This document shows, piece after piece, positions 8,182 through 49,259 of a DNA stretch of 64,000 bases. The notes below the pieces were generated by a model. The model did not search any database and was not told the origin of the DNA. It saw only the letters and a program-made list of their open reading frames with translations. The translations under genes and the position numbers were made by a program. Source of the DNA: a virus (lineage: Duplodnaviria; Caudoviricetes); IMG/VR virus record IMGVR_UViG_2775507097_000001, positions 1-64,000 of that record; one strand, given 5' to 3'. The number at the start of each line of letters is the position of its first letter. Position 1 is the stretch's first letter.

Positions 8182-9357
8182 TCAGATGGCGCTCGCGGTC
8201 ACCCGCGCCAGCACCCTGGCCAGGGCTTCAGGGTTCTTCTCCCGGCCTTTCTCCAAGAGGACGTGCAGCATCAGGAAGTACGGCTCGTCGACCATCTTCA
8301 GCGCCAGGTGCTGCCCCAGAATGGGGCCGTCGTCGTACGGCAAGGTACTTCCGCTGGGCAACGGCGCTTCGAGGCCCCGCTCGGTGTGGCGCGGCTCGGG
8401 GAGGACCGGCTGGATCGGATCCGGCTGCGCCTGCACGGCATCCGGTTCCAACGTGGCCGGGTTCGGCTTTACCGCGCTAAAGGTCTGCGCGGTGGTCACC
8501 GACTCGAGGACCGCCTTGCCGGATGTGGGCGGCGGCTGTGGTGGCGCGTATACCGCGGTATACGTCTCCGGGGCCGGGGCCGCCTCTACAGCCGTCGCGG
8601 GAGCCGAAGCCGGCGCGGCGGCGGGAGCAAGGACGGGGGCAAAAGCAGGGACGGGGGCGGGTTTCGGTGCGGAGGGTGCCAGGGGCGGCTGCTCCTGGTC
8701 CGTCTTCCACGCCGGATACTGCTCGTCGGATGGCATTGCCGCGTACCGGCGCATGTCCCGGAACGCCGTCAGCTTTCCGTCGAAGACGAGCTGCACCATC
8801 TCGTCGGTGAGGCGCAGCAGGCCGATCCGCTGGTTGAACCATTGCTTCGACTTGCCCATGGCCTTCGCCGCGGCGGACTGGTTGCCGTCGTGGAGAGCCA
8901 GCATCGCGTGCAGGCCGTTGGCCTCTTCGATGGGGTTGAAGTTGGCGCGCTGCACGTTCTCCGCCAGCACGGCGGAGAAGAACCGGATCCTGGACTCGGT
9001 CAGGTCGTGCCGCAGCAGCACGTCGAGACTGTCCAGGCCCACCTTGAGGGCGGCACGCCAGCGGCGCTCACCGGCCGCCATGACGTAGCGGCAGCCGTCG
9101 GGCAGATGCCCGGCGTGTTCGGGGTACAGCTTCAGGTAGGCGGCCTTGGAGACGGCCACGCAGGGCTGCAGCTGTCCGGCACGCATGCCCTCGCCGAGCT
9201 CGGCGAGTTCGGTCTCGTCGAAGTTCCGCCGCGGGTTGAGCGGTGTGGGAGCGACGGTGTCCGGGTGGACGTGGACGAGATCGGGTCGGCCGGCCCCGGG
9301 GACTGCCTCAACCTTGGCGCCGGCCAGGGAGGCGAGAGAGACGCGCTTGCCCGACAT
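8182..9357 (-). CDS. parB: ParB/Spo0J partition protein
   Basis: NPRRNF, GERRWRA arginine patch, ENVQR, HTH NQSAAAKAMGKSKQW; follows parA. Confidence 0.95.
   Translation of the reverse strand: MSGKRVSLASLAGAKVEAVPGAGRPDLVHVHPDTVAPTPLNPRRNFDETELAELGEGMRAGQLQPCVAVSKAAYLKLYPEHAGHLPDGCRYVMAAGERRWRAALKVGLDSLDVLLRHDLTESRIRFFSAVLAENVQRANFNPIEEANGLHAMLALHDGNQSAAAKAMGKSKQWFNQRIGLLRLTDEMVQLVFDGKLTAFRDMRRYAAMPSDEQYPAWKTDQEQPPLAPSAPKPAPVPAFAPVLAPAAAPASAPATAVEAAPAPETYTAVYAPPQPPPTSGKAVLESVTTAQTFSAVKPNPATLEPDAVQAQPDPIQPVLPEPRHTERGLEAPLPSGSTLPYDDGPILGQHLALKMVDEPYFLMLHVLLEKGREKNPEALARVLARVTASAI
8547..8564. promoter_or_regulatory. Candidate parS inside parB
   Basis: Perfect palindrome CGTATACCGCGGTATACG. Confidence 0.75.
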
Positions 9358-10019
9358 CAGCGGCGTCCTCCGTAACCACGCTCCAGGGCCAGGCGGAAGT
9401 AGTCCTCGCGGGCGCGCAGCGTGGTGCCGTTGTCCGCGTACTGCGTGACGACCTTGCCTTCGGAGGCGGCCCTGGTGTGGATTTTGTAGCGGCGGATGAC
9501 GGTCTTCGCGCGGGGCCAGCCCATGGCGTCGATGTACTCGATGGTGTCGTCGAGGTCGGCGCGGCCGTCGCGGGGGTCCCAGGCGTTGATGACGACGGTG
9601 TAGGGGAGGCCGCGGGGCACGATGACGCGTTCGATGGTGCGGGCGGTGGGGTCGAAGGCGAGGGGCTCGGGCGGCATGGGGACCAGGACGTCGTCGGCGA
9701 TGTCGAGGGCCGCGGCGAGGATGTGCTCGTTCTCGAGGCTGCCGGGGGTGTCGATGAAGATGTGCTGCCGCTGTTCGTTGTCGCCGAGGACGTCGTGGGT
9801 GACGGCGGCGAGGTTGACGGCGGTGGTGGTCTTCCCGACGCCGCCCTTCTGGTTCGCGATGACGTGGATCTGCGCGCCGAGGTTCTTCAGGTCGGCGAGG
9901 CTGTCGGAGTCTTCGTGCGCGGCCGCGAAGTCAAAGGGCAGGTTGTCGCCAACGCGGTCTGCCCACCAGATCGTTGATCCCTGTGGGTCGGTGGAGACAA
10001 CGAGGACTGAGGAAGGCAT
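9357..10019 (-). CDS. parA: ParA-family ATPase with rearranged motif order
   Basis: NQKGGVGKTT, STDPQGS, IFIDTPG; start re-called at ATG 10019 after GGAG. Confidence 0.92.
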   Translation of the reverse strand: MPSSVLVVSTDPQGSTIWWADRVGDNLPFDFAAAHEDSDSLADLKNLGAQIHVIANQKGGVGKTTTAVNLAAVTHDVLGDNEQRQHIFIDTPGSLENEHILAAALDIADDVLVPMPPEPLAFDPTARTIERVIVPRGLPYTVVINAWDPRDGRADLDDTIEYIDAMGWPRAKTVIRRYKIHTRAASEGKVVTQYADNGTTLRAREDYFRLALERGYGGRR

Positions 10020-10128
10020 GGTGCTCCGTTTCCGTGTGCTTCCCGAGCGGTGCTCGGTACTCGGACGGCCATAGCTTCTCAGATCGGTGCTGTGGGGTCG
10101 GGGATTGGGCAGGGTTTGCGCCTGGCGG

Positions 10129-10146
10129 CGTATACCGCGGTATACG
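10129..10146. promoter_or_regulatory. Candidate parS upstream of parA
   Basis: CGTATACCGCGGTATACG. Confidence 0.75.
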
Positions 10147-10197
10147 TCCATCGCCCTCGCCCGCGCGCCTCCCTCGCACAGTCCACCCCGGGCTCGG

Positions 10198-10215
10198 CGT
10201 ATACCGCGGTATACG
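10198..10215. promoter_or_regulatory. Candidate parS upstream of parA
   Basis: CGTATACCGCGGTATACG (20-bp palindrome with flanks). Confidence 0.75.
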
Positions 10216-10237
10216 CGGGAGTGGTCAACGCGGTCGG

Positions 10238-10393
10238 TCAGATGTCGTCTTCGTCCACGTCGTCCTCGTCGAGCAGGGCAAGACCTTCGGGGTACACGGG
10301 CTCCTGGAACAGCCGGTGACGCTCCCACGCGGGCGCCGGCCCGGCCTGCCGGGGCGCGGCAGGAACTTGGGCAGGGGTGGCGGTCTGCGGCAT
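10238..10393 (-). CDS. Small acidic-tailed protein (51 aa)
   Basis: MPQTATPAQ...LLDEDDVDEDDI, GAGGAG RBS; read by eye. Confidence 0.55.
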   Translation of the reverse strand: MPQTATPAQVPAAPRQAGPAPAWERHRLFQEPVYPEGLALLDEDDVDEDDI

Positions 10394-10403
10394 CGGGGGC
10401 TCC

Positions 10404-10621: not shown

Positions 10622-11404
10622 TCAGGCGACGTCGAACGCGCGGCGCACCGGTGCCGCGTCGCCGCCGCGCTTGCGGGCGATCGCGGCCCGGCGGATCTGT
10701 TCGGCGCGGTCCAGGGTCGGGGCGGTGAGCCGCTCGAGCTCGGCGACGGCATCGGTGAACGCGGTCTCCGGCTCCCGGTTCGCGGGGTGGGTCAGGACCT
10801 GGTTCTGCCGCTCGATGGCGTCGGCGACGCGGGGGTCGGTGGGCGTGCTGCTGGCTTTGGCGGCCTGGTGGGCTTCGAAGGTGCGGCGGTAGCCGGGGGA
10901 AGCGGTCTCTCGCGTGCGCACGGGTGCAGGCGGCACGGCGGGCTCCTCGACGGCGGGGGACGGTGCGGCGGTGGCTCCGGCGGCCAGCACGCGGATCTTG
11001 CGGACCGCGGGCCGGCCGAGGCGGTCGTTGAGGTGCTTGGCCAGTTGCCGCTCGAAGAGCCGGATCTGCGTGGCGTACGCGGCGCTCGAGGGCCGGAGGG
11101 TGAGCAGGCCGTGTTCGGCGTCGTAGCCGACGGGCTGCACGGTGGTGGCGAGTTCGGTGGGGCAGATCTGCGTCCACTGGTCGATGAGTTCGCCGCCGCC
11201 GATGCTTTCCTTCCAGCCTTGTTCGGCGGTGAGGCGTTCGAGGATGCCGCCGAGGCCGATGGGGTCGCGGCCGCCGGTGCGGCTCTCGCGGACGGTGCGG
11301 CGGGTCTTGCGGGCGGGTTCGGCCGGCCGGGTCTTGGCGGCCGCGCGGGCGGCGGCGAGGGCCTGGCGGGCGAGGTCCGCGCCAGATGCGGTGGGCTCAG
11401 CCAC
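10622..11404 (-). CDS. DciA/DUF721-family helicase loader-like protein
   Basis: DLARQAL...RDPIGLGGIL...GW...QWTQI...LTLRPSSAAYATQIRLFERQL...AVRKIRV, the actinobacterial DUF721 pattern. Confidence 0.85.
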   Translation of the reverse strand: MAEPTASGADLARQALAAARAAAKTRPAEPARKTRRTVRESRTGGRDPIGLGGILERLTAEQGWKESIGGGELIDQWTQICPTELATTVQPVGYDAEHGLLTLRPSSAAYATQIRLFERQLAKHLNDRLGRPAVRKIRVLAAGATAAPSPAVEEPAVPPAPVRTRETASPGYRRTFEAHQAAKASSTPTDPRVADAIERQNQVLTHPANREPETAFTDAVAELERLTAPTLDRAEQIRRAAIARKRGGDAAPVRRAFDVA

Positions 11405-12092
11405 GGTGGTCCTCCATGCGGTAAACGCGGACGGGGATACCTGCGGTCTTGGCGCGGCTGATGCAGTCAGCGGTGCCGCGGGAGTTGTTCCGGGAGAAGG
11501 CCAGGACGAGATCGACGCCCATGTCGACCATCAGCTGGTTGCGGTAGTGACCGGCCAACGGGCAGTACTCGCCGTGCCTGGACATCTTGCGATGTGGCGT
11601 GGACGGGCAGGCCGGAGTGCAGGGGCCTGACCAGTTGGCAGGGAAGCCGTGGTGGAACACGCCGTTGTCAATGGCCCACTGCTTGGCGATGGCGTCAGCG
11701 CCGGTGGGGCAGTCGCCATGGACGACGGTGAAGTGGACTTCGGGTGAGACGGTCTGGACGGCATCGTGCCAGGCGTCCAGGAGCGCGTCAGCGACAGCTT
11801 GTTGGTCGGCCCAGGTGCGCGATCCGGTGACCAGGACGTGGACTTCCTGAATGCAGCCGATGACCTTCTTGATGATCGGCTCGGGAAGGGCGGCGTTCAG
11901 CTTCTCCGCCATCTTCAAAGCGACAAGGCGCAGCTGGGTCAGCCAGGCCTGGTTGATGCACTCAACGATCAGGATGCCGCGCGGTGCGTCGAACCCAGAC
12001 GGCGTCCACCCGTACGACCCGTGCGGCTGCCGGAGCACGGATGCCCATGCGGCCACTAGTTCAGCACTGATAGCTGACTCGGTCATGCCCAT
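11397..12092 (-). CDS. DciA-like domain fused to SLOG (YspA/DUF2493-type) domain
   Basis: N-term GILIVECINQAWLTQLRL...KLNAAL; C-term VLVTGSRTW...VVHGDCPTGADAIA...AGHYRNQLMV...SRGTADC. Confidence 0.8.
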   Translation of the reverse strand: MGMTESAISAELVAAWASVLRQPHGSYGWTPSGFDAPRGILIVECINQAWLTQLRLVALKMAEKLNAALPEPIIKKVIGCIQEVHVLVTGSRTWADQQAVADALLDAWHDAVQTVSPEVHFTVVHGDCPTGADAIAKQWAIDNGVFHHGFPANWSGPCTPACPSTPHRKMSRHGEYCPLAGHYRNQLMVDMGVDLVLAFSRNNSRGTADCISRAKTAGIPVRVYRMEDHRG

Positions 12093-13414
12093 GCTCCCTG
12101 ACGCTCGAGAAGGGCCTGCTTGCCGATGGCGTACTTACACAGGGGCTCGCCGTACAGATCGAGGGCGTCGTCCTTGTCCTCGTCGTAATGGGCAATGACC
12201 TCGGGCCAGATGTCCCAGTCCATCTGCGCTCGGGCCCGTTCCTCGGCGGTATACGCGCGCTTCGGCTCCGTCTCGGGGGCGCCGAACAGCGCTTCCAGGG
12301 CAGCGCGTGCGGCGGCCTGCTCGCGGCCCGCGGTGCTGTCCTCCCAGGCGACGGCCTGCGCCAGCTCCTGCTGGTGCTGGGTGTCCATGGCGATCCGGGC
12401 GCGGATGAACGCGACGGGGTTCTTGGGCTTCCAGCGCATGCCGGAGCACATGCCGTTGAGTTCGTCGGCGATGCGTAGACCGTCCCAGCCGCGGTCGGTC
12501 CAGGGCCGCAGGACGTACTCGAGACGGCGCAGCGGCACCTTCTGCGTCCAGTTGACGAGGGCTCGCACCAGCCGGATGGTCTGGCTGGCTTTCTGGACGT
12601 CGACCGCGGTACGGCGGCGGCCGTCGATCTGGCTGCTCTGGTGCGGGATCGGGGTCTTCGGCGGCCGAGCCTGCGAGGTGTAGTTAAAACCACCTACTAG
12701 ATCAACCTGACTCTCTTCTTTAACCACCGTTAGGGAAGGGGGCGCAAGGCTCTCCGAATCGGAGTTGTCCACAGGCGGGTTATCCACAGGCTTCTCCTGG
12801 CCCCGAAGGTCCACGATGATCCGAGCGGTGTACCCGGAGCCGACGATGCGGTGGCTCATGGCGTGGTCGTAGACCGGGGGGATGACCGCGGCGTACACGG
12901 TGGCGGTGGCCGCGTATCCGCCGAGGCCGAGCATGGGGCGCACGTTGGTGCGGGTGCCGTGCTGGACCCAGGCGAGGGCGCCCAGCTCCCGCAGATATGA
13001 CACGTGCCGCTTCACGGTGGCCTTGTCGACGCCGAGCCGGTGCGCGGTCTCGAGCATGCAGTAGCGGGCGTGCCCGGTGTCGTAGTCCATGCGTGCTGCG
13101 AGGTCTTCGGCGACGCGCAGCGTGGTGGCGTTCGCGCGGCCGTGCAGGCCGGCTGCGATCAGCCACGCGACTGCGCGAAGCCACCGACGCGGGCCGCTCC
13201 GGCGCGAGGCAGTGCACGCCACCTCTTGGGCGGCGCCGCGGACGAGAGCAACCTGGCCTGCACTGTAGTCGTACGCACGTTCGATTTCGACAGTAGGGGC
13301 GTATGTGTCCGGGGTGGATTCGGTGCGCTGGATGCCACCCGACCGGGGGGAGATTCCTCGCGAATCGCCCACGGTGGAGTTGCCAAGCTGACAAGAAGGG
13401 GTGCGGTGCTGCAC
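12083..13414 (-). CDS. Replication initiator (HTH Rep)
   Basis: HTH ETAHRLGVDKATVKRHVSYLRELGAL; internal DnaA boxes; adjacent to DciA and ParAB; likely start GTG 13414 (ORF open to 13495). Confidence 0.75.
   Translation of the reverse strand: MQHRTPSCQLGNSTVGDSRGISPRSGGIQRTESTPDTYAPTVEIERAYDYSAGQVALVRGAAQEVACTASRRSGPRRWLRAVAWLIAAGLHGRANATTLRVAEDLAARMDYDTGHARYCMLETAHRLGVDKATVKRHVSYLRELGALAWVQHGTRTNVRPMLGLGGYAATATVYAAVIPPVYDHAMSHRIVGSGYTARIIVDLRGQEKPVDNPPVDNSDSESLAPPSLTVVKEESQVDLVGGFNYTSQARPPKTPIPHQSSQIDGRRRTAVDVQKASQTIRLVRALVNWTQKVPLRRLEYVLRPWTDRGWDGLRIADELNGMCSGMRWKPKNPVAFIRARIAMDTQHQQELAQAVAWEDSTAGREQAAARAALEALFGAPETEPKRAYTAEERARAQMDWDIWPEVIAHYDEDKDDALDLYGEPLCKYAIGKQALLERQGAWA
12680..12788. 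other. Candidate replication origin: AT-rich stretch plus two DnaA boxes
   Basis: TTGTCCACA 12765-12773, TTATCCACA 12780-12788, AT-rich 12680-12733. Confidence 0.7.
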
Positions 13415-13642
13415 TATGTACCTGCCTTCGTTGATGGCCTTGCGGGAACGCAAAAGCCCTCGGTGGCGGTGAAGTGGTTCGTGGAGAACCTGCATTTCGC
13501 TCGCTCGGGTTGGCGCCCGGCGGGCCTTAGATCGGCATTGGCGTGCTGATCCGTGGTACGAGGGCCGCAGAGGCCCGGAGGTGTTTGGCGCACCAGTCCG
13601 GGACGCGGCCAGGCGGTCGAGGAATCTCCCGCCCAGAAAGCG

Positions 13643-31513: not shown

Positions 31514-32599
31514 TCAGCTCTCCTCTACCAGGATCGGGCGGATGCGGTCGGCGCCCGGGTCGAGCTCCCACGACCAGCAGCGGGCGACCACGTTGGCGCC
31601 TTGCGGGTGCCGCGGTGAGCGTTCGACGGCCATGCGGACGGTGTCGCCGAGCGCCCAGTCCCGGTTGAGGCGTGGGGCGCGGGAGGCGACGGCCTCGATG
31701 GACCACACCTGGGCGCCCTGTTGCATGAGCGTCAGCGACTGCGCGGCGTGGGCGTTCAGCTGGTCCGGGTCGGTGACGCCGGTTGCGGGGGTGTAGCGGT
31801 ATTCCCAGCGGGGCCAGCCTGCGGCGATGAGCGCGGTCGCCTCGTGCGGGCTGGACGTGAGCCGGGACGACCCCTCGCCCTCACCACGGGCGAGAACGAC
31901 GGTGGCGCCTTTGCCCTGTTCGTAGGACTCGGCGAGGGTGTACGAGTCGACGCAGCCCGGAAAGTCGAAGGTCGCTTCCGGCGTAGTTGTTTGGCTGCCG
32001 ATGGCCGGGCGGACGCGCAGCGGGAACTGGAACCCCGAGTGGCTGCCGTTCCAGACGACGTCGACGGTCCACTCGGGGCCGCCGTCCAAGGCCATGAGCT
32101 CTTTGAGGCAGGAGAGGATCGACTTGTCGTCGCCGTCCTCGGTCAGGTAGGTCATGGTGACGCCCGTGTTCGGCGCGTCGATGACGATCGGCGGCCCGTT
32201 GGTGAGGGCGGGGGTGACGAGGGCAGAGATGACCGCTGCCTGGTCGGTGCCGATGAGGGTCTGCGTTCCCGGGTAGCGGCCGTCGAGGTAAGCCTCGAGG
32301 GTGATGGCCCCCAGGGACAGGGTCTGCGGGCTGCCACCGCCCCGGGTCAGTACCGCGCCCGCCCAGAGCGGCGTGTCAGTAGCTGTGTCGACGGCCACCA
32401 GCGCGGACTGGCCCGGCGTGGTCGCTTCGGTCCAGCCGCTCGGAGCGCCAGCCAGGTTGAGCTCGAACTGGAGCGTTGTCGAGTCGCCGAGTTTCCGTGT
32501 GAGCGCCCCAGTCGGCTTGAGGGAGGGGAGGTCCTCGATGATGCCGCCCGAGCCCAGGTCGCAGCCGTACCAGGCAAGTTGGTAGGGCGTCTCCGTCAT
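31514..32599 (-). CDS. Minor tail protein (baseplate hub-like)
   Basis: LWAGAV, GGPEW, LGDTV; position; start re-called. Confidence 0.8.
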   Translation of the reverse strand: MTETPYQLAWYGCDLGSGGIIEDLPSLKPTGALTRKLGDSTTLQFELNLAGAPSGWTEATTPGQSALVAVDTATDTPLWAGAVLTRGGGSPQTLSLGAITLEAYLDGRYPGTQTLIGTDQAAVISALVTPALTNGPPIVIDAPNTGVTMTYLTEDGDDKSILSCLKELMALDGGPEWTVDVVWNGSHSGFQFPLRVRPAIGSQTTTPEATFDFPGCVDSYTLAESYEQGKGATVVLARGEGEGSSRLTSSPHEATALIAAGWPRWEYRYTPATGVTDPDQLNAHAAQSLTLMQQGAQVWSIEAVASRAPRLNRDWALGDTVRMAVERSPRHPQGANVVARCWSWELDPGADRIRPILVEES

Positions 32600-33630
32600 C
32601 AGACGGACTCGTAGGAGCCGGTGATGCGGACCTGGCTGCCGTTGGCCATGGTCTCCGGCACGCCCTGGCTGTGGAAGGCGAGCCGGCAGTCGGTCTGTGA
32701 GGGCGGGAAGAATGTGCTGATGCTCGTCGCGGTCGGCGAGATCACGGTCTGTCCCGCCCACCGGTTCGTGCCGAGCAGCTGGGCGACGCCGATCATGGAG
32801 GCGCCGAGGTTGGCGGCCGCGAAGGGCGGCATTGTCCAGTTGTAGTTGCCGGACCCGTATGTGGTGGTCGAGCCGCAGGTGAGGTTGATGTGGAAGATCA
32901 CCTGGCGGCCGATCTTCTGGTAGCGGCCGGCCAGCGTCCCGTTCCCCACGGCCGGGTTGGTGGTGGAGCCGGTCCACACCGGCGTGTAGGACGTCCAGGC
33001 GCCCGGCACCTTGTAGTAGGTGTCGTAGGAGGATCCGTTCCAGCGCAGCAGGTCGGTGCCGTTGTCGTAGAACTGGCCGATGTACGGAGTCGAGGGCGCG
33101 GTCGCGGTGGGCAGGATGCCGCCCGGTGCCACGGTGTTGGGGCGGACCGCGGTCGACACGGAGGCGGTGCCGCCGTTCGACACGGACAGCACGCTGATCG
33201 TGGCCAGCGGCATGTAGATCTGCGTGCCCGCCGGGGTCGGCGCGACCGGGGAGGCGGACGGGGTTCCCGCCAGGTAGACGATGTCGCCCTTGGCCAGGCC
33301 GGACGCGTCGACGGAGTTGTCCCACACCCTCAGATAGACCAAGTCCACCCTGTTCAGGGTGGCGTGGGCTGCCGTGTACGTGCCCGGGGACACCGTGGAC
33401 GGGAACGCCACCCGGTAGACGCCTTGCCCGCTGAAGGCGACCGCGGCCACGCCCGCGCTGCAGTTGATGGTCGTACCGGCCAGCGTGACCGTCAGGCCCG
33501 GGTCGCCAGGCCGGACGCCGGACCGGGAGCCGAGGGCGGTCCCGTCGGTCATGATCTGCATGGCCTCGACGTTGCGGGCCTCCAGGCCCGAGAAGGTCAG
33601 CGAGTCGATCGCCCATACGTCTACTGGCAT
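32599..33630 (-). CDS. Minor tail protein
   Basis: RSGVRPG, RVDLVYLRV, WTSYTPVWTG...GRYQKIG. Confidence 0.85.
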   Translation of the reverse strand: MPVDVWAIDSLTFSGLEARNVEAMQIMTDGTALGSRSGVRPGDPGLTVTLAGTTINCSAGVAAVAFSGQGVYRVAFPSTVSPGTYTAAHATLNRVDLVYLRVWDNSVDASGLAKGDIVYLAGTPSASPVAPTPAGTQIYMPLATISVLSVSNGGTASVSTAVRPNTVAPGGILPTATAPSTPYIGQFYDNGTDLLRWNGSSYDTYYKVPGAWTSYTPVWTGSTTNPAVGNGTLAGRYQKIGRQVIFHINLTCGSTTTYGSGNYNWTMPPFAAANLGASMIGVAQLLGTNRWAGQTVISPTATSISTFFPPSQTDCRLAFHSQGVPETMANGSQVRITGSYESV

Positions 33631-33640
33631 GTCTGCCTCC

Positions 33641-34513
33641 TCACATCCAGGCCGAACGCCATGTGGCGGTCAGCATCGCGCTGGCGTTGTAGGTGCCCGA
33701 CTGGAACTGGTAATTGACGGCCGAGCCGGCGGGGATCGTGGGCCAGCCGGACGCGACGGTCATGAAACGGCGACGGGAAACGCCGCCGTTGAGGACCACG
33801 GTGTGCGCGTCGGTGTCGATGACGAGGACATCGCCGCTGGCCAGATCCAGCGAGTAGACGAGCTGTCGCACCGTGCCGTCCGGATAGAGAGCGGACACGG
33901 TCGGCGCGACGACGGGCCCGGCGATCGTCAGGACCGGGCGGGTGTCCATGGAGCCGATGTTGATGGCGTTGATCTGCCCGGACACCGTCGTCGCCGAGAA
34001 TGCGGCTGGGAACGTCACCGGGAAGGTCAAGCCACCCGTTGTGGTCGGCAGGCCCGTCGTGCCGGACTGCAGGGTCGTGCTGTAGCGCCGCGGATCCGCG
34101 GCCGTCACCAGCACGCTGTAGGTGGCGATCCGGTCCGTGACATAGGCCATCAGAGGCTTGCCGGACCGCCGGACCGTCGCCTGCTTCGGCCCCGTCAGCT
34201 CGTACACCACCAGCGTGGTGTCGCCCAGGGCGGCTGCCGTCCGCAGCCTCTCCAGGGCGTCCTCGAGCGTCGTCCGGTCCGGTGCCGTGACCGTGCCGGC
34301 CAGCGTCATCGGGCGGGAGCCGAGATAGGTAGGCGACGCCCACGCCCCGTGGTCGGCTTCCCTCTCGGTGTATTCGGACCGGACCTCGGCGCTGTCCCAG
34401 CCGTCGAAGGACTGCAGGGACCAGGCGACCCCGTTCGCGTCCACCCCGCCGAGCGGGATGGCGCCGAGGTCGACCCGTAGTCCGCCGAGATCCTGTCCTG
34501 CAGTGAACGGCAC
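33641..34513 (-). CDS. Distal tail protein (Dit-like)
   Basis: Directly after tape measure; AADPRRY, WRSAW end. Confidence 0.85.
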   Translation of the reverse strand: MPFTAGQDLGGLRVDLGAIPLGGVDANGVAWSLQSFDGWDSAEVRSEYTEREADHGAWASPTYLGSRPMTLAGTVTAPDRTTLEDALERLRTAAALGDTTLVVYELTGPKQATVRRSGKPLMAYVTDRIATYSVLVTAADPRRYSTTLQSGTTGLPTTTGGLTFPVTFPAAFSATTVSGQINAINIGSMDTRPVLTIAGPVVAPTVSALYPDGTVRQLVYSLDLASGDVLVIDTDAHTVVLNGGVSRRRFMTVASGWPTIPAGSAVNYQFQSGTYNASAMLTATWRSAWM

Positions 34514-34526
34514 CGCGCCCCCTTCC

Positions 34527-37500
34527 TCAGCCGACGAAATTCATGTGCCGGGCAATGTCGGCGGCCTGTTCGGCGCTGGTCTGCTTGGCGCCATTGAGGG
34601 TGATGTTGGTGACGCGGTCGCCGTGCCCTCCGCCCCACGGGGTGCCGTAGTCGTTGCTGGCGTACCGGCTGGCCGGGACCAGGTGGTAGCCGAGCGCCGC
34701 CGCGGAGGCGGCCAGCAGCGCCCTGCTGCGGGCGGTCCGAGTGAGCGGGATGAACGCCTCCGGCCCCGCCTCCCCGGCCAGAACCGGGGTGGCCCGGCTG
34801 AGGATCCCGCCCAGTGCCATGGCCTTCCCGCCCTGGGACACCCACTGCCGGACGAAGACGTCCTTGTTCGGTGCCGGGAGCGCGCCGATCGCGCCGGTCA
34901 TCTTCGGGACCAACGCCTTGATGACGTCGGTGCCCAGGCCTGCGGCGATGAGATCGGCGTAGCCGCGCCCGGTGCCGCCGCGCAGCGTGGACAGCAGGAT
35001 CAGGCTGTTGGTGAGGTCGTCACCGGTGAGCGTGCCCTCAGCCTTGCCGACCGCCTGGTTCGCCTTGGCGGCCTGCGTCTTGCTGCCGACCGCCTGGTGA
35101 GCGAGCGTCTGCGCGTTGGAGTCGCCCTGCGCGGCGAGCGCGGACGCCAGATCCCCGAACCCTTGCGAGGCCAGCGTCTGGAGATCCTTGGCGAACTGCT
35201 GGTTCGTGGTCGTCGCCGCGCCGAGCTGCTTGGTGAAGTCCTGCAGCGTGGCCTTGGCCACGTCCCCGGTTTTCTGGAGCTTCTTGACGATGTCGTTGAA
35301 CTGCTTGTTCGAGGCTCCGGCCAGCGAGTTGACGAGGGCGTAGCCGTCCTCGCCCATCCCTTCGAGCATCGACTCAACCTCGGCGCCGCCCCGCTTGCTG
35401 ATCTTTGCGAGGTTGCCGCGCCACTTGTCCGTCGCCGCGACGCTCTTGTTGAGCTGCGTCTCGTAGGCCTTGAGGTCGAAGCCGGTGGGGGCCTTCGCCC
35501 CCTTCTTCACGCCAAGGGCCGCGTCTGCTTTGTTCACACCCGCGCGGTCAGCCGAGACCGTCTTGTCGGCAGACTTCTTCGCCGACCTGGCCTTGTCGAC
35601 CCGCGACTGGGCGGCCCGCAACTGGGCCGCCGTGTGGTGACCGTGACGTACCCGGGACAGGTTCTTCTCGGCGTTGCTGAGGTCGTCGGCCTTCTTCTTC
35701 GCGTCCTTCAGCGCCGAGTTGAGCTTGTCCCATGCCGCCTTCAGGGCGTCGACGGCCTTGTCGTAGCGCGTCTTCGGATCCGACGGGCCGCCCAGCACTG
35801 CCTGCCCGGTCGGCGTGTAGGTGAAGCCGGCGAGCCCTCCGCCCGCGAACCGCTTGGCGTTGAGGCGGTCGAACATGTGGGTGCCGTACTTGCGGACGGC
35901 GTCTGCCTTGATGACGTACTCGCCGTTGGAGACGAGCGCCGGGATGCTGTCCGAGGTACCCGTGCCGGGGCCTACAACCCGGCCGCCGAACGGCATGTAC
36001 TGGATGGCACCGCCATCCGCGTAGCCCCGCACGAGGCCGCCGCGCGCGTACTTGCCGCCCTCATGGGCGACCGTGCCATGATCCGTGTGCGTCGTCACGA
36101 CGTTGACGGAAACGGTCTTGCCATGGACACCGTCGATGTAGCCCTGGATGGTGGCCGCAGCCGAGCTCGGACCGCCCGTCGGCAGGGTGATCGTGACCTG
36201 CTTGCCGTGCGTCCGCGAGATGTGGAACCCGAGCGACGAGAGCGCCTCCTCGGCCACCTTGGTCAAGGCTCCGACCGTGACGGTCTTCCCCTTGGTACCG
36301 GCGACCTTGCGCCGTACTGCGTCCAGATCCGTGAGCGCCTTGGAAGTTGCAGCACTGACCGGCAGCTTCTTCCCCGGCAACTTCTTCGCGAGCAGCGCGT
36401 CAAGAGCGGCAGCAGCCTTGTCGGTCGGCGCCGTGATCTCCATCTGCCGGCCGCCGGGCAGCGTCTTGACCTTGAAGCCGACCGACTCGATGTCCTTCTT
36501 GGCCTCGGTGGTCAGCGCCGACACCCGGATCGTGGAGCCCTTCGGCATGTGCCCGGCAAGACCCTGGACGTACAGCAGCTGCTTCTGCGTGTCCGACAGA
36601 CCCGGCGTCGACATCGTGATCGCCAGCGACGACGGGATGAACCCCATCTGCATGGCCAGGACCTTCGCCTGGTCGGCGGTGAGCCCGAACTTCTGCCCGG
36701 CCCTGACTGCGGCCTTCCACGACTTCTCCATGGCGCCCTCGGCCTGCTGCAGCGCCGGAACGACATCGGTCTTGTTGGCCCTCGCGTAGTCGTAGGTGGC
36801 CTGGGCCGCGCCGGCCGTCTGCTCGTTGAGGCCCTGCAGCTTGGTCCACAGGGACTGCCCGTTCTCACTCGTCGTGTTCAGGCTGCCGTCGACCTGCAGA
36901 AGAGCCTTGCCGTAGCCCTTCGCGTGGTCGACGCCGTCCTTGTAGCTGCCGTTGAGATCAAGCAGCGCCTGATTCATGACCGCGACCGCCGCCTGCACGT
37001 CCAGCTCGCCGCCCGACAGCAGATCGAGAGCAGTGTGCAGAGCGCGCGCCTTCGTGTCCGCATCCGATGCGGAGTCCCCGAGCGTCTTGATCGCGCCCTG
37101 CAGCCGCCCCGTCGGATCGGTGGCATCCAGAGCCGCAGCGCCAGACCCCTTGACCGCGTCGGCCAAGTCCTTCTGCTTCGTGCGAGCCGCGTCGAACTCC
37201 CCGGAGAGAGAACCGAGCGCATCAGCGGCGTTCTTGTAGACCTGCCCCTGCGGCGTGTACACCTTGCCGGCCGTCCGGCCTGCGTTCACAAACTTCGTGT
37301 TCTCCTCGGCGGCAGCGGATAGCCGCTTGCGCAGCCCATCAACCGATGTGCCCTGCCCGAGGTAGGCGTCCGTGAGCTGGGTGGCGTTGATGCCCGCGCG
37401 GTGCATGACGTCCAGCAGTTGCGTCTTGCCGTCCTTCAGCTTTGTGTCCGCCAGGGTCTGCACGGCCGCAGCGCGAACGCTGCCGTCTGCCACACCGGCG

Positions 37501-39803
37501 GACTGCTGCAGTGCCGTAGTGAGAGCGGAGATCCGCTGCTGGTGGGCTGCCGCGGCAGCCGCGGCTTCCTGCTGCTTCTTGGCCAGCAGGTCCAAGCCGA
37601 TCATTGCGGCGCCGATTGCGACACCCCACGGCCCGCCGAGGAACCCGTACAAACCCCGGGCGGCACCCATCAGCCCGCGCCCGGCGCCCGTGCCGATCGC
37701 GGCCAGAGCGCCGCCGGCCGCCGACCGGAAACCGACCAGGCGACCGCCAGCCTCCTGGATGCCAGTAGAGGCGGTGCGGAACGAGTTGCCCATCGCGGCG
37801 ATCGTCGGGGAGCGGGCCTCGAGTGCAGCGAGCCCGGCACCCCAGCGGCCGAGCGAAACCCCGGCCCGGCTGGCAAGGATCGTCTGCGTCTGCATGGCGC
37901 CGCGCACGCCGTTGAACGACGCGACCGCCGAACGGCCGTAGCCCGCGACCGCGTTCTGCATGCCCTGGATCTGCCCACGGAACGGGCGCATGGCGAGCAT
38001 TGCCAGCACGGACAGCTGGATCGGGCCTGGCAGCCCTGCGAACGCGTGCGCGATGCCGCCCACGAGCTCGCCGACCGGGCGCAGGATTCCCGACATCTCC
38101 CCGAAGAGCCCCACGCCGACCTGGAGACGGCCTGTGAGCACACCAAGGGCACCCGCCCCCGAGGAGACGGACCCGAACATGTCGTGCAGCCCGCCGAGCA
38201 GTGGCTGGGCGGCAGCCCCGGCGTTGCCGAACGCCTGGCCGAGGGAGTGCACGGAGGTGATGGCCAGCGGCACGGAAGCAACCGCAGCCGACGTGATCGC
38301 CGCCTTCAGTGGGGCGGCGAGACTCGACGCGGCCCGGCCGATACCGCCAGCCGCCGAGTGCAACTTCGCCTCGACGGACGGCCCGTAAATGTCCCACAGG
38401 TCACCGGCGATACGGATGCCGGACTTGATGTACGGGATGGCCTTCGAGACGCCCTGCGTCATCGACCGCGTGATTCCCTCGAGGCCCGGGGCGATGCCCA
38501 GGTAGATCTGGAGGAACGCGCTGGAGATCTGCTTGCCGAGGCCGCGCATCGCGCCGCCCAAGCCCTTGGACTCGGCGGCAGCCAGAGCCGCGGCCCCGCC
38601 CACACGACCTACCTGCACGCCGAACGTCTGGAAGGCTTCCCCGCCCTGGTGCGCGAGGGCCACCATGCCCGCGAGGGCGGGCTTGCCGAACGCCATTGCC
38701 GCGGCGGCCGTGAACTGCTGGGTGGTGAGGTGGTGGGAGGCGTCACCGAGCTTGGTGATGACGTACTGCAGGCCCTTGAAGTTGCCCTGGCCGTCGAACG
38801 CCTCGATGCCGAGCTCGTGAAGACCCTTGGTGGCCAGCTTGGTCGGCTTGGCCATGTTGACCAGCGCCGACCGCAGGGCGGTACCGGCGGTCTCACCGAT
38901 GATGCCGGACTTGCCGAGCAGGCCAACCGCAGTGGCTGTGTCCTTGATGGAAACGCCCATGGTGTGGGCGATCGGGCCCACGTACTTCATGGCGTAGTAG
39001 ATGTCCATCAGCTCGCCAGAGGCACTGTTGGACGTGTTCGCAAGGACGTCCGCGACGTGGGTCGCCTCTGTGGACTTGAGGGCGAACTGGTCCATGATGT
39101 CGCCCTCGATCTTCGCCGCGGTTGCGACGTCAGTTCGAGCAGCAGCAGACAGCTGGATCGTGCCTCGAGCAGCCCTGATCGCGTCCTGCGCAGACAGGCC
39201 CGCCTTCGACAGCTCCACCATCGCGTCCGCGGCCTCAGCCGCATTCGCCGACGGCAGCTTCATGTCCGCGCCGAGGGCCTGCGCCTCACGGCCGGCCGCC
39301 GCCATCTGTCCCCCCGAGGCGCGCGTGACCTCGAGGAATTTGTTCATCGCGTCCGTGTACTCGTTGCCCGAGTGGACGATGTCGTGCAGGCCGAAGATGA
39401 TCGCGCCGCCCGCCAGAAGCGCGCCGAGGTGCTTCATCGGGCCTAGGACTGATGTGATGCCGGACTGGACTGAGCCCATTCCGGTGCGCGCCGCAGCCCC
39501 CATCCGCCCGAAAGCGGGCGACGTCAGGGCGGCCTCGTTCCGCATGGCCCGCGCGCCGCGGCCTGCGGCCAGCGCCGCAGCTTCGGCCTCACCGACACCC
39601 GCCGCGCCGCCGCGCGCACCCGCCCCCATGGCCATGAGGCCGGTGCGGGCTATCGCCCCGTCCGCGCCGAGGGCGCGAATCCCGCGCCCAGCGACAAGGG
39701 AGGCCTCGCCGAGGGCCAGCAGTTCGCCAGTGCCGGTACGCACGATGGTGCCAAAGCCCGGCATCTCGGCGATGACGCGGACGCGCACGGTACGGTCGGC
39801 CAC
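34527..39803 (-). CDS. Tape measure protein
   Basis: 1758 aa Ala/Gly-rich; AGTALRS core; GPGTGTSDSIPA..SNGEYV; GEAGPEAFIPL. Confidence 0.97.
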   Translation of the reverse strand: MADRTVRVRVIAEMPGFGTIVRTGTGELLALGEASLVAGRGIRALGADGAIARTGLMAMGAGARGGAAGVGEAEAAALAAGRGARAMRNEAALTSPAFGRMGAAARTGMGSVQSGITSVLGPMKHLGALLAGGAIIFGLHDIVHSGNEYTDAMNKFLEVTRASGGQMAAAGREAQALGADMKLPSANAAEAADAMVELSKAGLSAQDAIRAARGTIQLSAAARTDVATAAKIEGDIMDQFALKSTEATHVADVLANTSNSASGELMDIYYAMKYVGPIAHTMGVSIKDTATAVGLLGKSGIIGETAGTALRSALVNMAKPTKLATKGLHELGIEAFDGQGNFKGLQYVITKLGDASHHLTTQQFTAAAAMAFGKPALAGMVALAHQGGEAFQTFGVQVGRVGGAAALAAAESKGLGGAMRGLGKQISSAFLQIYLGIAPGLEGITRSMTQGVSKAIPYIKSGIRIAGDLWDIYGPSVEAKLHSAAGGIGRAASSLAAPLKAAITSAAVASVPLAITSVHSLGQAFGNAGAAAQPLLGGLHDMFGSVSSGAGALGVLTGRLQVGVGLFGEMSGILRPVGELVGGIAHAFAGLPGPIQLSVLAMLAMRPFRGQIQGMQNAVAGYGRSAVASFNGVRGAMQTQTILASRAGVSLGRWGAGLAALEARSPTIAAMGNSFRTASTGIQEAGGRLVGFRSAAGGALAAIGTGAGRGLMGAARGLYGFLGGPWGVAIGAAMIGLDLLAKKQQEAAAAAAAHQQRISALTTALQQSAGVADGSVRAAAVQTLADTKLKDGKTQLLDVMHRAGINATQLTDAYLGQGTSVDGLRKRLSAAAEENTKFVNAGRTAGKVYTPQGQVYKNAADALGSLSGEFDAARTKQKDLADAVKGSGAAALDATDPTGRLQGAIKTLGDSASDADTKARALHTALDLLSGGELDVQAAVAVMNQALLDLNGSYKDGVDHAKGYGKALLQVDGSLNTTSENGQSLWTKLQGLNEQTAGAAQATYDYARANKTDVVPALQQAEGAMEKSWKAAVRAGQKFGLTADQAKVLAMQMGFIPSSLAITMSTPGLSDTQKQLLYVQGLAGHMPKGSTIRVSALTTEAKKDIESVGFKVKTLPGGRQMEITAPTDKAAAALDALLAKKLPGKKLPVSAATSKALTDLDAVRRKVAGTKGKTVTVGALTKVAEEALSSLGFHISRTHGKQVTITLPTGGPSSAAATIQGYIDGVHGKTVSVNVVTTHTDHGTVAHEGGKYARGGLVRGYADGGAIQYMPFGGRVVGPGTGTSDSIPALVSNGEYVIKADAVRKYGTHMFDRLNAKRFAGGGLAGFTYTPTGQAVLGGPSDPKTRYDKAVDALKAAWDKLNSALKDAKKKADDLSNAEKNLSRVRHGHHTAAQLRAAQSRVDKARSAKKSADKTVSADRAGVNKADAALGVKKGAKAPTGFDLKAYETQLNKSVAATDKWRGNLAKISKRGGAEVESMLEGMGEDGYALVNSLAGASNKQFNDIVKKLQKTGDVAKATLQDFTKQLGAATTTNQQFAKDLQTLASQGFGDLASALAAQGDSNAQTLAHQAVGSKTQAAKANQAVGKAEGTLTGDDLTNSLILLSTLRGGTGRGYADLIAAGLGTDVIKALVPKMTGAIGALPAPNKDVFVRQWVSQGGKAMALGGILSRATPVLAGEAGPEAFIPLTRTARSRALLAASAAALGYHLVPASRYASNDYGTPWGGGHGDRVTNITLNGAKQTSAEQAADIARHMNFVG

Positions 39804-39840
39804 GGCAGCCCCCTATTCAGTTGTCGCGCATTGAGGCAGG

Positions 39841-40440
39841 TCAGTCGGTGGCCAGCCCGAAGGAGCGGAGGACGTCGGCGGCAGCCTGCGAGGGCGGGCC
39901 GAGCTCGCCGGTCTGGAACTGGATCTGGATGGCGGCGGACCACAGTTGTGCGAGCTGCCCGTCGGAAAGCTCGCTCCAGAAGGCCGCGAACTCCTCGGGT
40001 GTCGCTGGCTTCGGCTCGATCAGCTGGGCCTCGACGAGCGCAGGGGCGAAGGCATCCGCGTCGAAGGCCGGTTCCTCGCTCCCGCCGCGGGCTGCCGCCT
40101 TCTCGATCTGGTCCTTGGTCGGCGGATGCTCCACCCGCAGTGCCTGGTAGGCCCGATGGGTGATGGCTTCGAGGGTGAACCGGACCCGGGACTCTTCGGC
40201 CTGCGCTTCCAGCTCCTGGAGGCGCTTGGCGACGTCCCGGGCGGATTCTGTGCCGTTGGCTTCGTCGTGGCGTTGCGCCCGCTCGAGGAGCTGCTCGAGG
40301 GCGTCGATCTCCGACGCGGCCTCAGCGTTCATGACGAGTTCGACGATGTGCCGTGGCCGCTGGATCTTCGCCCGGATGTCAGCGAACGTCAGCGCTGGCT
40401 TCGCAGCCCGGCGCGCGGGCGGCTTCCTGCTCGTAGTCAT
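39841..40440 (-). CDS. Second tail assembly chaperone paralogue
   Basis: HRAYQALRVEHPP...FDADAFAPALV aligns with 41196-41672. Confidence 0.75.
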   Translation of the reverse strand: MTTSRKPPARRAAKPALTFADIRAKIQRPRHIVELVMNAEAASEIDALEQLLERAQRHDEANGTESARDVAKRLQELEAQAEESRVRFTLEAITHRAYQALRVEHPPTKDQIEKAAARGGSEEPAFDADAFAPALVEAQLIEPKPATPEEFAAFWSELSDGQLAQLWSAAIQIQFQTGELGPPSQAAADVLRSFGLATD

Positions 40441-40465
40441 TGGATTCCCTGTCCTTGACGTGCTG

Positions 40466-40843
40466 TTACATGGCCTGGTGGACGGCGATTTCGATGCCGG
40501 TGACCAGGTCTTCGGCGTTCGCGTCGAGCGCGGGGCCGAGGTGTGGGAGGGGGGCGTTCTTCGAGGTGCCGTACTCGATGATGTTGCCGAGCGGCCCCTG
40601 CGCCATGCCCTTGTCGGGGCCGATCTCGCCCTCGACGCCTTCGGCGGTGACCTTGACGTCGTAGGTGATCGAATACGGGTAGGCGGGCAAGTACTTGTGG
40701 CCCTTGATCCGGTTGCGGGCGTCGTCCCGGACCTTCTGCGAGGTGACCTTCACGGCCTTCCCCGCGTTCACCCGCAGCCGCTCAGCGAAAGTGCCCAGGT
40801 CGTCCACCACCACGGTGAGGCCAATCACGTCGATTCCCGCCAT
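40466..40843 (-). CDS. HK97 gp10-like tail completion protein
   Basis: EGEIGP...IIEYGTSKNAPLPHLGPAL. Confidence 0.85.
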   Translation of the reverse strand: MAGIDVIGLTVVVDDLGTFAERLRVNAGKAVKVTSQKVRDDARNRIKGHKYLPAYPYSITYDVKVTAEGVEGEIGPDKGMAQGPLGNIIEYGTSKNAPLPHLGPALDANAEDLVTGIEIAVHQAM

Positions 40844-41208
40844 CACTGCTCCCTCCGGAACACGCTGACCTTCAGCCCCTCGGTTTTGCCGCCGTCTTCC
40901 TGGTGTGCGGCCACCCGGCGGGCGCCGGCGAGGCAGGCGTGGCATTTCGTGATCGACGCGTCGTAGGCGAACTCGGCCTCGGCCTGCGTGGTCTCGGACA
41001 GCAAATGGCCACAGTCTCCGCACAGCCCCGATTCGGCCTCCATCAGGGCCATTGCCCACCAGCGGTCCTCCGGCAGCCATAGCGGCTCACCGGGGGCAGG
41101 CTGCGGGCGGCCGAGGAGGATGCTGCGCGGAATGCCCCAAGCCCGCGCCGCTTCAACTTCCCGCCGGTACGGGAGGCGGTGATCCCGCAGGCGGGCTACG
41201 AGAAAGGG
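40843..41208 (-). CDS. Tail assembly chaperone -1 frameshift extension (gpT-like)
   Basis: -1 frame PFLVARLRD...WLPEDRWWAMAL...CGDCG...CHAC opens at slippery site. Confidence 0.75.
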   Translation of the reverse strand, partial: PFLVARLRDHRLPYRREVEAARAWGIPRSILLGRPQPAPGEPLWLPEDRWWAMALMEAESGLCGDCGHLLSETTQAEAEFAYDASITKCHACLAGARRVAAHQEDGGKTEGLKVSVFRREQ

Positions 41209-41672
41209 ATCGGCGACGGCTCCTCGTTCACCGCGAGCGCCGTCGCGAAGAGCATCCTGGCGGTGCCGTCGTTGACTACGTCCAGCAGCCTGTCGACCTG
41301 CGCCGGCGTCAGCGACGGCTCGACACAGCAGGCAGCGAGAACCGCGGGCAGGAACGTGCCCGCGTCGTAGGGCTCCTTCGAGTCCTTCGGCGCCGGATGA
41401 GCGGCGAGCAGGTTGCTGTAGGCGCGGTGCCCGAGCGCCCGAAACCGGAACTCGACCGCCGTCTCCCGCACCCGCTCCCGGGCCGCAGCAATGCGCTCCT
41501 GAAGCTCGAACGCCGGGTTCGTCTCGCCGAGCGACGTCGGCTGCCACTCCCCCAGCTGTCCCAGCTCCGCCTCCAACGCCTCCAACTCGGCGCCCGCGTC
41601 GCCCGCAAGGCACACCGGAACGGTGACCTCGCGAGGCGACGCCCCTGCCAAAAGCTCCGAGATGTCCGGCAT
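41196..41672 (-). CDS. Tail assembly chaperone (gpG-like)
   Basis: Directly after major tail gene; ends IPFS at slippery sequence. Confidence 0.85.
   Translation of the reverse strand: MPDISELLAGASPREVTVPVCLAGDAGAELEALEAELGQLGEWQPTSLGETNPAFELQERIAAARERVRETAVEFRFRALGHRAYSNLLAAHPAPKDSKEPYDAGTFLPAVLAACCVEPSLTPAQVDRLLDVVNDGTARMLFATALAVNEEPSPIPFS
41202..41208 (-). other. Programmed -1 frameshift heptamer C CCT TTC
   Basis: X XXY YYZ pattern one codon before the stop; -1 frame open to 40843. Confidence 0.75.
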
Positions 41673-42151
41673 CAGGCGACGACAGCCCGCGTCGCCGGGT
41701 CCGACGTGACCTTCAGCGGCGCCATGAACTTCGAGACCTCGTTGGCCGCCGGGGCGATGTTCTGCGCCTCGCCCGCCGCGACCGGGTACACCTCGACCTT
41801 GTCGCCGGTGGCGAACGCGGTGGCGTAGGCCACGCCGCGGCGCACGATGACGAAGCCAGTCGCGCCATACGTCAGCGTGGTGTACGGCTGGTCCTCGGTC
41901 GGGGTCGAGCCCCGCTTGAACGTCAGCTCGACCGTGTAGGAGCGGCGGCCGGGCTGGTTGGTGGTGAACGTGCTGGCCAGCGACGACGTGTCGACGTCCG
42001 CCGTCGCCGGGTCGGCCTTGAGGCCGTCCGGGGTCAGCCGGGTCGTCCAGTCGTTCGCGGCGGTCAGCTCCGCGACCGTCGGTGCGCTCAGGTTCGCGAT
42101 GCTGGTCGCGAACGCGACCTTCGTGTTGCCATCGCTGATCAGGTCAGACAT
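41672..42151 (-). CDS. Major tail (tube) protein
   Basis: IANLSAPTVAEL...VIVRRG...GDKVEVYPV. Confidence 0.9.
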   Translation of the reverse strand: MSDLISDGNTKVAFATSIANLSAPTVAELTAANDWTTRLTPDGLKADPATADVDTSSLASTFTTNQPGRRSYTVELTFKRGSTPTEDQPYTTLTYGATGFVIVRRGVAYATAFATGDKVEVYPVAAGEAQNIAPAANEVSKFMAPLKVTSDPATRAVVA

Positions 42152-42219
42152 GAACCCTCCTCGGGGGCATGAAAAAAGCCCCGGTCAGCGGGGCGGGGCG
42201 AGACTGGGGGCGGGCAGGG

Positions 42220-42552
42220 TCAGATGCGCAGCGCGGCGACGGTCACCGACGTGACGGCCGAGTAGCCGACGCTGGCCTGCTGGTTGATGTCCGCGTGCAA
42301 GGACGAGTCGATGGGGCCGATGAACTTGTCGGTCGCGTTCGCGACGGTGACGATCCGATCCGGCAACGTCAGCCCCTTGACCTGGTTGGACTGCGTCGTG
42401 ATGGTCACGGTGACCGGGCTGGCCCCGCCGTTCTTCACGTGCAGGAAGATGTTGGACGCGCCGAGCGGGATCTTGTCGCCGCCGCCCGCGGCCGTCGAGT
42501 AGGTCGCGGCCAGACCAGCCGCGGTGATCGACTGAAGGCTGAGAACTGCCAT
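42220..42552 (-). CDS. Small virion structural protein
   Basis: Beta-rich LHVKNGGASPVTVTI in structural operon. Confidence 0.7.
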   Translation of the reverse strand: MAVLSLQSITAAGLAATYSTAAGGGDKIPLGASNIFLHVKNGGASPVTVTITTQSNQVKGLTLPDRIVTVANATDKFIGPIDSSLHADINQQASVGYSAVTSVTVAALRI

Positions 42553-42562
42553 GGTGATCTCC

Positions 42563-42973
42563 TCACTGAGGGATTGAGCGCAGCCGGTACCGGGCTACGG
42601 CGTAGTAGTTGGGGGGTGTTACGTCGTCGTCCCTTTGCACCGGCTGACCGTCGAGGAACTCCGGCCGCCAGGACACGCGCCCAGCGACCGTGATTCTCGC
42701 CGCGAGAGCCGCCATGGCCCGGTCCGAAACAGATGCCGCCTGCTCGGCGGTGAGCCCAACACAGGTGAGCTGGACCTCGCCGACGAAGTCGACAAGGTCA
42801 TCAGCGAGTGATGCCGCCACCGCACGCCCCGGAGTCGGGTAGAGCACCGTGTACGGCTGGGTGGCCGTCGGTACGACGCCCGGGGGCGCCCCACCGAAGT
42901 AGACGGTCAGATCGGCCCCGGTGAGAGCTGCGGTGACCGCATCGACGTGAGGAAGAACAGCGGGAGTCGTCAC
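42563..42973 (-). CDS. Tail terminator
   Basis: PYTVLY...QLTCVG.TAEQA...VQRDDDV. Confidence 0.8.
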   Translation of the reverse strand: MTTPAVLPHVDAVTAALTGADLTVYFGGAPPGVVPTATQPYTVLYPTPGRAVAASLADDLVDFVGEVQLTCVGLTAEQAASVSDRAMAALAARITVAGRVSWRPEFLDGQPVQRDDDVTPPNYYAVARYRLRSIPQ

Positions 42974-42986
42974 GGGCGGCCTCCCG

Positions 42987-44023: not shown

Positions 44024-44034
44024 GCGGGCCCCCT

Positions 44035-44400: not shown

Positions 44401-44470
44401 GACTCATCTCCTTCGTGAAGGCCCGCCGGCGCGGACGGACAGGGATGCGTCCGCGCCGACGGGAGCCATA

Positions 44471-45808: not shown

Positions 45809-45809
45809 G

Positions 45810-46729: not shown

Positions 46730-46819
46730 TGCGTCCGCCCCTTCAGTTGTGGACATGCGAAAGGGGCCCCATTGCGGGACCCCCTGGTGTTGGTCGATGG
46801 TCATCCCTGCCGGAAGCGG

Positions 46820-47857: not shown

Positions 47858-47858
47858 G

Positions 47859-49241: not shown

Positions 49242-49259
49242 AGGTCACCCCCGTCATCG

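Follow-up and report, generated by a model that had tools for sequence, protein, structure and literature searches.

Can a ParA-type partition ATPase keep its fold and its active site when the motifs that define it follow one another along the chain in a different order? The ParA/MinD ATPases of the SIMIBI class carry Walker A, Walker A', and Walker B in this linear order. The parA gene studied here lies in a 64,000-nucleotide stretch of viral DNA (positions 1 to 64,000 of IMG/VR record IMGVR_UViG_2775507097_000001), referred to below as the window, and its product departs from that order, since Walker A' (VLVVSTDPQGS, V5-S15) comes first, the deviant Walker A motif (K58-T64, within IHVIANQKGGVGKTT at residues 51-65) second, and Walker B (HIFIDTPG, H86-G93) third. 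Taken one by one, the motifs are regular. The deviant Walker A motif is defined as KGGxxGK[ST] with an N-terminal signature lysine (PMC9178275), a definition met by K58-GGVGK63-T64, and the Walker A' and Walker B criteria are met by VLVVSTD11 and HIFID90. A sequence-only reading of the window had claimed this motif order with the residues quoted, as well as an intact frame coupled to parB. Both claims held exactly: the translation gives the order, and the 220-aa ORF ends in a stop codon that overlaps the parB ATG by one base, at 9357, an arrangement of translational coupling. A GGAG lies 5 nt 5' of the parA ATG at 10019. An upstream in-frame GTG at 10328, which would open a 323-aa ORF, was rejected as the start because homologues share the same Met, GGAG precedes that Met, and palindromes occupy the upstream stretch. 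The features of the locus are listed in Table 1.

Table 1. Coordinates of the parA-parB locus and its palindromes, numbered along the window
Feature	Position	Strand	Description
parA	9357..10019	-	220 aa, block order A'-A-core; same ORF called by PGAP in pSAM1 ("ParA family protein")
Block A'	residues 1-50, 9870..10019	-	Strand with VLVVSTDPQGS, helix, LPFDF strand, helix
Block A	residues 51-83, 9771..9869	-	P-loop strand, deviant Walker A KGGVGKT (nt 9828-9848), helix α1, short linker
Core	residues 84-220, 9357..9770	-	Walker B strand HIFIDTPG (nt 9741-9764) and remaining ParA fold, including the IRRYK..H.RA..EG region
parB	8182..9357	-	391 aa; Pfam ParB_N (1.8e-10) and HTH_ParB (3.6e-8); GERRWRA motif in translation
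Palindrome copy 1	10199..10214		16-bp perfect GTATACCGCGGTATAC, upstream of parA; candidate parS/operator
Palindrome copy 2	10130..10145		16-bp perfect GTATACCGCGGTATAC, upstream of parA
Palindrome copy 3	8548..8563		16-bp perfect GTATACCGCGGTATAC, within the parB coding sequence (read as YTAVY)

The unusual motif order reflects true block homology and not a coincidence of motifs. HMMER aligned the protein to the 209-aa Synechocystis ParA (PDB ID 3cwq) in three out-of-order stretches: residues 52-73, the P-loop, on 3-24; residues 4-30, the A' strand and the Trp helix that follows it, on 30-54; and residues 84-200 on 68-182. In the reverse direction, a profile built from 90 swapped proteins matched 158 canonical relatives in the order hmm49-82, hmm3-47, hmm83-220. 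Since the forward and reverse tests agree, ParA resolves into three blocks, A' (1-50), A (51-83), and core (84-220), of which the first two are exchanged relative to the canonical order. In canonical ParAs, block A' is placed between helix α1 and the Walker B strand. Its equivalents are 3cwq residues 30-54 and, in relatives of canonical or circularly permuted order, profile positions 2-48; those of block A are 3cwq residues 3-24 and Soj residues 10-30, and the core is collinear with 3cwq residues 68-182.

General-purpose models register this architecture only in part. Pfam AAA_31 (40.2 bits; cut-off, 27) and CbiA (34.7 bits; cut-off, 25.4) both pass, and the AAA_31, CbiA, and MipZ matches cover only profile positions 3-25, on the P-loop stretch at residues 51-73. 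The protein scores 72.6 bits against NCBIfam NF041546 (ParA_partition), far under the cut-off of 180, in a non-collinear, split match. This failure is not caused by the swap alone, because the canonical relative P0123 also falls under the cut-off (89.9 bits). We found no dedicated NCBIfam model for the swapped ParA, and database names of swapped homologues read just "ParA family protein".

The swapped order is widespread among close homologues. It was found in 120 of the 120 best database matches (64-95% identity, each a 90% cluster). Sampling of actinomycete plasmids and metagenomes gave 131 homologues with this order, among them those of S. ambofaciens pSAM1 (96% identity), pSLE1, and phage ZL12 (64%). 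The ParA query is matched over at least 80% of its length, in one collinear place, by 162 plasmid records; these include pSAM1, pSLE1, large linear Streptomyces and Kitasatospora plasmids, and the phage/plasmid ZL12, whose parA we translated to read the swapped order directly. The plasmids carrying it range from 70 kb to 1.7 Mb, and the swapped ParA is therefore not specific to phage-plasmids. Full-length collinear copies of parA are present in 11 of 401 Streptomyces species genomes, the window's own genome counted. One Streptomyces genome holds two equal-scoring swapped copies on separate contigs (G264:C5:31155-31808 and G264:C8:3457-4110).

Independent sequence data also span the block junctions, at 9869/9870 and 9770/9771. 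Logan contigs of run X2, which bears the same species label and comes from another study, cover 9775-9932 and 9728-9804 with 0 differences, and soil metagenome X3 supplies contigs over 9826-10149 and 9572-9816. Each junction is therefore crossed independently, and no indels or joints were reported. Raw reads of the 2026 run X23 (same species label) touch only the P-loop codons, at the 90-95% likeness of another ParA, and are uninformative on the junctions.

The swapped gene is real, conserved, and under selection. In the 90-sequence alignment, which reaches down to 49% identity, D11, Q13, S15, W19, K58, G59, G60, G62, K63, T64, T65, D90, P92, and G93 are invariant. Nei-Gojobori dN/dS was 0.07-0.08 for codons 1-83 and 0.06-0.07 for the remainder, so that the rearranged part is constrained about as much as the rest of parA. 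This comparison was limited to pSAM1 and the NBC_00257 plasmid, synonymous sites being saturated in more distant pairs. That the protein is functional is very likely, with ATPase activity and partition inferred.

AlphaFold2, given the 90-sequence alignment, modelled one compact ParA domain (pLDDT 92.1, pTM 0.90). Block A' forms a β-α-β-α pattern (strand 5-9, helix 15-26, strand 30-33, helix 38-47) and block A a β-loop-α unit (strand 50-54, P-loop, helix 63-78), after which come the Walker B strand (86-90) and a regular α/β core. The top Foldseek matches were ParF, 3cwq, and Soj. In VIA-align, model residues 49-219 superposed on residues 1-206 of ParF (4dzz_A) with a Z score of 18.4 and an rmsd of 2.1 Å (161 of 206 residues aligned); Z was ~16 for Soj and ~15 for MinD. 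The ParF residues left unaligned match its A' excursion in number, and they remain unmatched because a sequential aligner cannot pair this excursion with a block that is N-terminal here. The window ParA is thus predicted by the model to have the ParA/MinD three-dimensional fold.

The location of block A' within this fold is shown by the circular permutant P0122, a relative in whose model (7-sequence alignment; pLDDT 80.5, pTM 0.84) block A' and core are collinear with ParF residues 28-206 (Z 16.1, rmsd 2.9 Å, 173 aligned). Residues 1-48 of the window protein were not directly superposed. That they fill the A' position in cis is inferred from the block homology, the matching β-α-β-α pattern, the model pTM, and the P0122 superposition. 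In the kinase-GTPase (KG) class of P-loop folds, the Walker B strand lies next to the P-loop strand. Helix α1 would therefore be a plain crossover to Walker B, and the last helix of block A' would return to the neighbouring P-loop strand. We infer that only two loop connections differ from those of a normal ParA. The sequence-only reading had likewise invoked neighbouring strands in the sheet; this point rests on general knowledge of KG-class folds, no model coordinates having been inspected.

The best explanation, which we hold with high confidence, is that the window encodes a working ParA partition ATPase with non-canonical chain wiring and with the fold and active site of a small ParA like ParF. 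Its fold, conservation, and genetic context are shown, while ATPase activity, dimerization, partition, and the evolutionary path are inferred. In this view, the strand-P-loop-helix unit (block A, 51-83), normally first, would sit after the strand-helix-strand-helix excursion that carries the A' aspartate (block A', 1-50), and would connect directly to the Walker B strand (from residue 84 on). The active site would comprise the signature Lys58, the catalytic Lys63 and Thr64, Asp11, and Asp90. ParA, the cotranslated helix-turn-helix (HTH) ParB, and the GTATACCGCGGTATAC palindromes would act as a parABS system that keeps a pZL12-like phage-plasmid in Streptomyces hyphae, through the usual partition cycle of ATP-sandwich dimer, nucleoid binding, and ParB-stimulated hydrolysis. 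In the literature searched, which did not cover the original pZL12 description (PMC2897331), we found no biochemical or genetic test of the swapped family.

The surroundings of parA meet the layout of a type I parABS locus, with parA followed by parB (ParB_N plus HTH) and repeated palindromic centromere-like sites. The ParB N-terminal peptide is MSGKRVSLASLAG. The three copies of the GTATACCGCGGTATAC palindrome in the window compare with 0.01 expected by chance, and copies occur at equivalent places in pSAM1, the NBC_00257 plasmid, and pSLE1. pZL12 carries a variant, TTTACCGCGGTAAA, as do loci whose parA is circularly permuted or canonical. The palindrome is likely to be the parS/operator of this ParB family.

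We examined how the blocks are arranged in wider kin by profile search of 1.84 billion 50%-identity representatives. The swapped order was found there in the query's own cluster (P0065) and in one divergent protein (P0136), and the next-best matches, with E values of 1e-89 to 1e-60, all aligned in three stretches. Among the relatives, P0123, P0125, P0126, P0132, and others have the canonical order A-A'-core, while P0122, P0124, P0141, and P0197, then P0271, P0274, and P0282, are circular permutants of order A'-core-A, with Walker A at about residues 205-214. Block sequences are near-identical across the three orders, as in the unit (I/V)HVIANQKGGVGKTT...NLAAV..DVLG. Two further proteins appear to lack a block, P0209 (186 aa) having A' and core without the P-loop block and P0160 (204 aa) having the core and a C-terminal P-loop block without A'; each may be a truncated gene call or a split gene.

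The three orders also share a genetic setting. Of the loci fetched, one circular permutant locus and one canonical locus have parB directly 3' of parA, and the palindrome T(A/T)TACCGCGGTA(T/A)A is common to loci of all three topologies. Its copies in swapped loci (the window, pSAM1, the NBC_00257 plasmid, pSLE1, and pZL12) and in L004, a circular permutant locus, are placed upstream of parA, within parB, or both; L005, a canonical locus, gave two copies, both inside parB. Given the same operon layout and palindrome family, we therefore conclude that a single ParB-parS system is paired with ParAs of three different chain orders.

These relatives bear on two further claims of the sequence-only reading. 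The claim that swapping the first two blocks back restores a normal short ParA held, as P0123-type relatives have that order from near-identical blocks. The claim of a rewired topology, not a simple circular permutation, held for the window protein; true circular permutants, with a C-terminal Walker A, exist among its nearest kin. The checks that the reading had named came out as it expected: ParA profiles gave non-collinear matches, many homologues of the same order were found, the predicted structure was confident and superposed on ParF and Soj, and independent assemblies crossed both junctions.

The history of the order is less clear. In a core-only tree (138 columns), the canonical P0125 and the circular permutant P0122 are nested inside the swapped clade. 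A full-length tree of re-ordered sequences (226 columns) instead unites the 30 main swapped proteins in one clade (SH-aLRT 84), with four circular permutants as its sister group (96) and canonical forms around it. Further circular permutants branch at other points of this tree, whose starred branches force at least two origins of circular permutants, and the divergent swapped P0136 is placed apart. A single clade of all 31 swapped proteins was not rejected by the AU test (p 0.92; the constrained tree was even better). Because the two trees disagree and the test does not reject a single clade, the number of relocations remains unresolved, and we do not claim independent origins of the swapped order. 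The canonical order must be the ancestral one, since the rest of the superfamily has it.

The swapped order may have arisen by duplication and loss. A partial 5' duplication of a canonical ancestor would give A-A'-A-A'-core, and loss of the first A and the second A' would then leave A'-A-core, every stage keeping a complete ATPase. This path is inferred and unsupported by intermediates: no protein with two A or two A' blocks was present among the 357 sampled, and no duplicated form (A'-A-A'-core or fused tandem) turned up when longer proteins were searched. The only longer-protein match, P0359, was discarded as a canonical relative with an over-long gene call.

A bolder reading, which in our judgment could prove right or wrong with equal ease, treats the strand-P-loop-helix unit as a position-independent module relocated several times within one actinomycete plasmid ParA clade, all three topologies being working ATPases on the same ParB-parS. 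The unit would stand at the N terminus in the ancestral form, between block A' and Walker B in the swapped family, and at the C terminus in at least two circular permutant lineages. If true, these ParAs would be the first case in nature of close homologues that build one P-loop fold with three chain topologies, and a direct test bed for the β-(P-loop)-α element as an autonomous ancestral unit.

Other explanations of the window protein fare less well. The one that survives best, itself unlikely, places block A' in trans, so that the N-terminal 50 residues would complete the sheet of a partner and yield a domain-swapped, obligate intertwined dimer and not a rewired monomer. In its favor, the N-terminal block is the least confident in the model (mean pLDDT 76-85 for residues 11-40), ParAs are dimeric anyway, and residues 1-48 are left unaligned by sequential structure aligners. 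Against it, the AlphaFold2 monomer is compact (pTM 0.90), with the block as a regular β-α-β-α unit, and the loop from helix 38-47 to strand 50-54 has only ~2 residues, as for a hairpin-like return in cis.

We give very little credence to a second alternative, in which parA is a decaying or functionally diverted relic (for example, a regulator or ParB partner only) whose active site was broken by the rearrangement. The violated motif order and the NCBIfam ParA_partition score far under its cut-off speak for it. However, nucleotide-binding and catalytic residues are all invariant across 90 sequences down to 49% identity, dN/dS is ~0.07, the order is kept on 70-kb to 1.7-Mb plasmids and an active plasmid-phage, and the parB coupling and parS-like sites are conserved. 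Finally, a local misassembly or sequencing artefact, conceivable in a source genome that is a 98-contig draft, is practically ruled out by the identical order in complete plasmid records and phage ZL12 and by independent contigs (from another study and a soil metagenome) that cross both junctions without indels.

The preferred reading, a rewired ParA working in cis, can be set beside known systems. Small ParAs without an N-terminal HTH (ParF of TP228, PDB IDs 4dzz, 4e03, 4e07, and 5u1g; Synechocystis 3cwq) resemble the window ParA in length (~205-220 aa), motifs, and overall fold, but their order is A-A'-B where the window has A'-A-B, so that one block is lost in sequence alignments and in sequential structure alignments. 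The partner of ParF is the small ParG, whereas the window ParA is paired with an HTH ParB with a GERRWRA motif and not with a small ParG-type protein. Soj/ParA of chromosomal ParABS systems (PDB IDs 2bek, 1wcv, 6iub, and 8ray) share its fold and, letter for letter, its NQKGGVGKTT P-loop; they too are paired with an HTH ParB and a palindromic site, and the IRRYK region of the window ParA aligns to the IPRNVR region of Soj. Compared with Soj, the window ParA is shorter, is carried on a plasmid or phage-plasmid, and has its N-terminal third permuted. The plasmid-phage pZL12 (phage ZL12, GQ919031), a different element, encodes a further member of the swapped family, pZL12.17c, with 63.8% identity to the query and a collinear match that spans 99% of it. 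Its gene precedes a parB, and one TTTACCGCGGTAAA palindrome lies 5' of parA and one within parB. pZL12.17c is annotated only "ParA", and the pSLE1 paper gives only the ParA identity to pZL12.17c (PMC4487206).

The nearest precedents are the circularly permuted GTPases (YlqF/YawG/RsgA; cpRAS, PMC2430557), which also show a natural, conserved re-ordering of nucleotide-binding motifs in a P-loop NTPase that retains its fold. The cpRAS-type proteins are true circular permutations in TRAFAC GTPases, whereas the window ParA is a SIMIBI-class protein with an internal segment swap that leaves the C-terminal two thirds in place. Unlike them, the swapped ParA has close relatives of both other kinds, circularly permuted and canonical. 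In the full-text literature searched, the coverage of which was incomplete, nothing described a permuted ParA or another permuted SIMIBI ATPase. With its order kept under selection in well over a hundred relatives, the swapped ParA is a natural permutation of a P-loop enzyme of a rare, non-circular kind.

The conserved permutations known so far in natural P-loop NTPases belong to a few GTPase families, and they are circular. The swapped ParA thus offers a natural experiment on how far the connectivity of a P-loop fold can change with function kept. It also calls for caution in annotation, as swapped ParAs score as split or weak ParA matches and fail equivalog cut-offs. Since pZL12/pSAM1-type phage-plasmids grow in Streptomyces, the family is a tractable system in which to study how rewired ParAs fold and how their ATPase works.

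As a parABS-stabilized phage-plasmid, the element itself is biologically ordinary. The window is a Streptomyces phage-plasmid of the pZL12/pSAM1/pSLE1 type, a plasmid type described in the pSLE1 paper, which relates pSLE1 to pZL12 (PMC4487206). On its minus strand it carries genes for a tape measure protein (34530-39803, 1,758 aa), a major head protein (44474-45808), a portal protein (47862-49241), and a large terminase (49263-50879); the structural and packaging region (31517-50879, minus strand) also includes a minor tail protein. In the Logan assembly of the probable source run, X1, contigs with the stretch 9300-10400 have a word depth of 565-795, and two other contigs with only short matches to it have about 37-40. 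Such depths are not copy numbers, and the contrast is at most a hint that the element may be multicopy or induced. The gene 5' of parA (10622-11404, minus strand) is the counterpart of the pSAM1 gene for a DUF721 domain protein, and further upstream, 12083-13495 is the counterpart of a helix-turn-helix protein gene, possibly a replication or regulatory gene.
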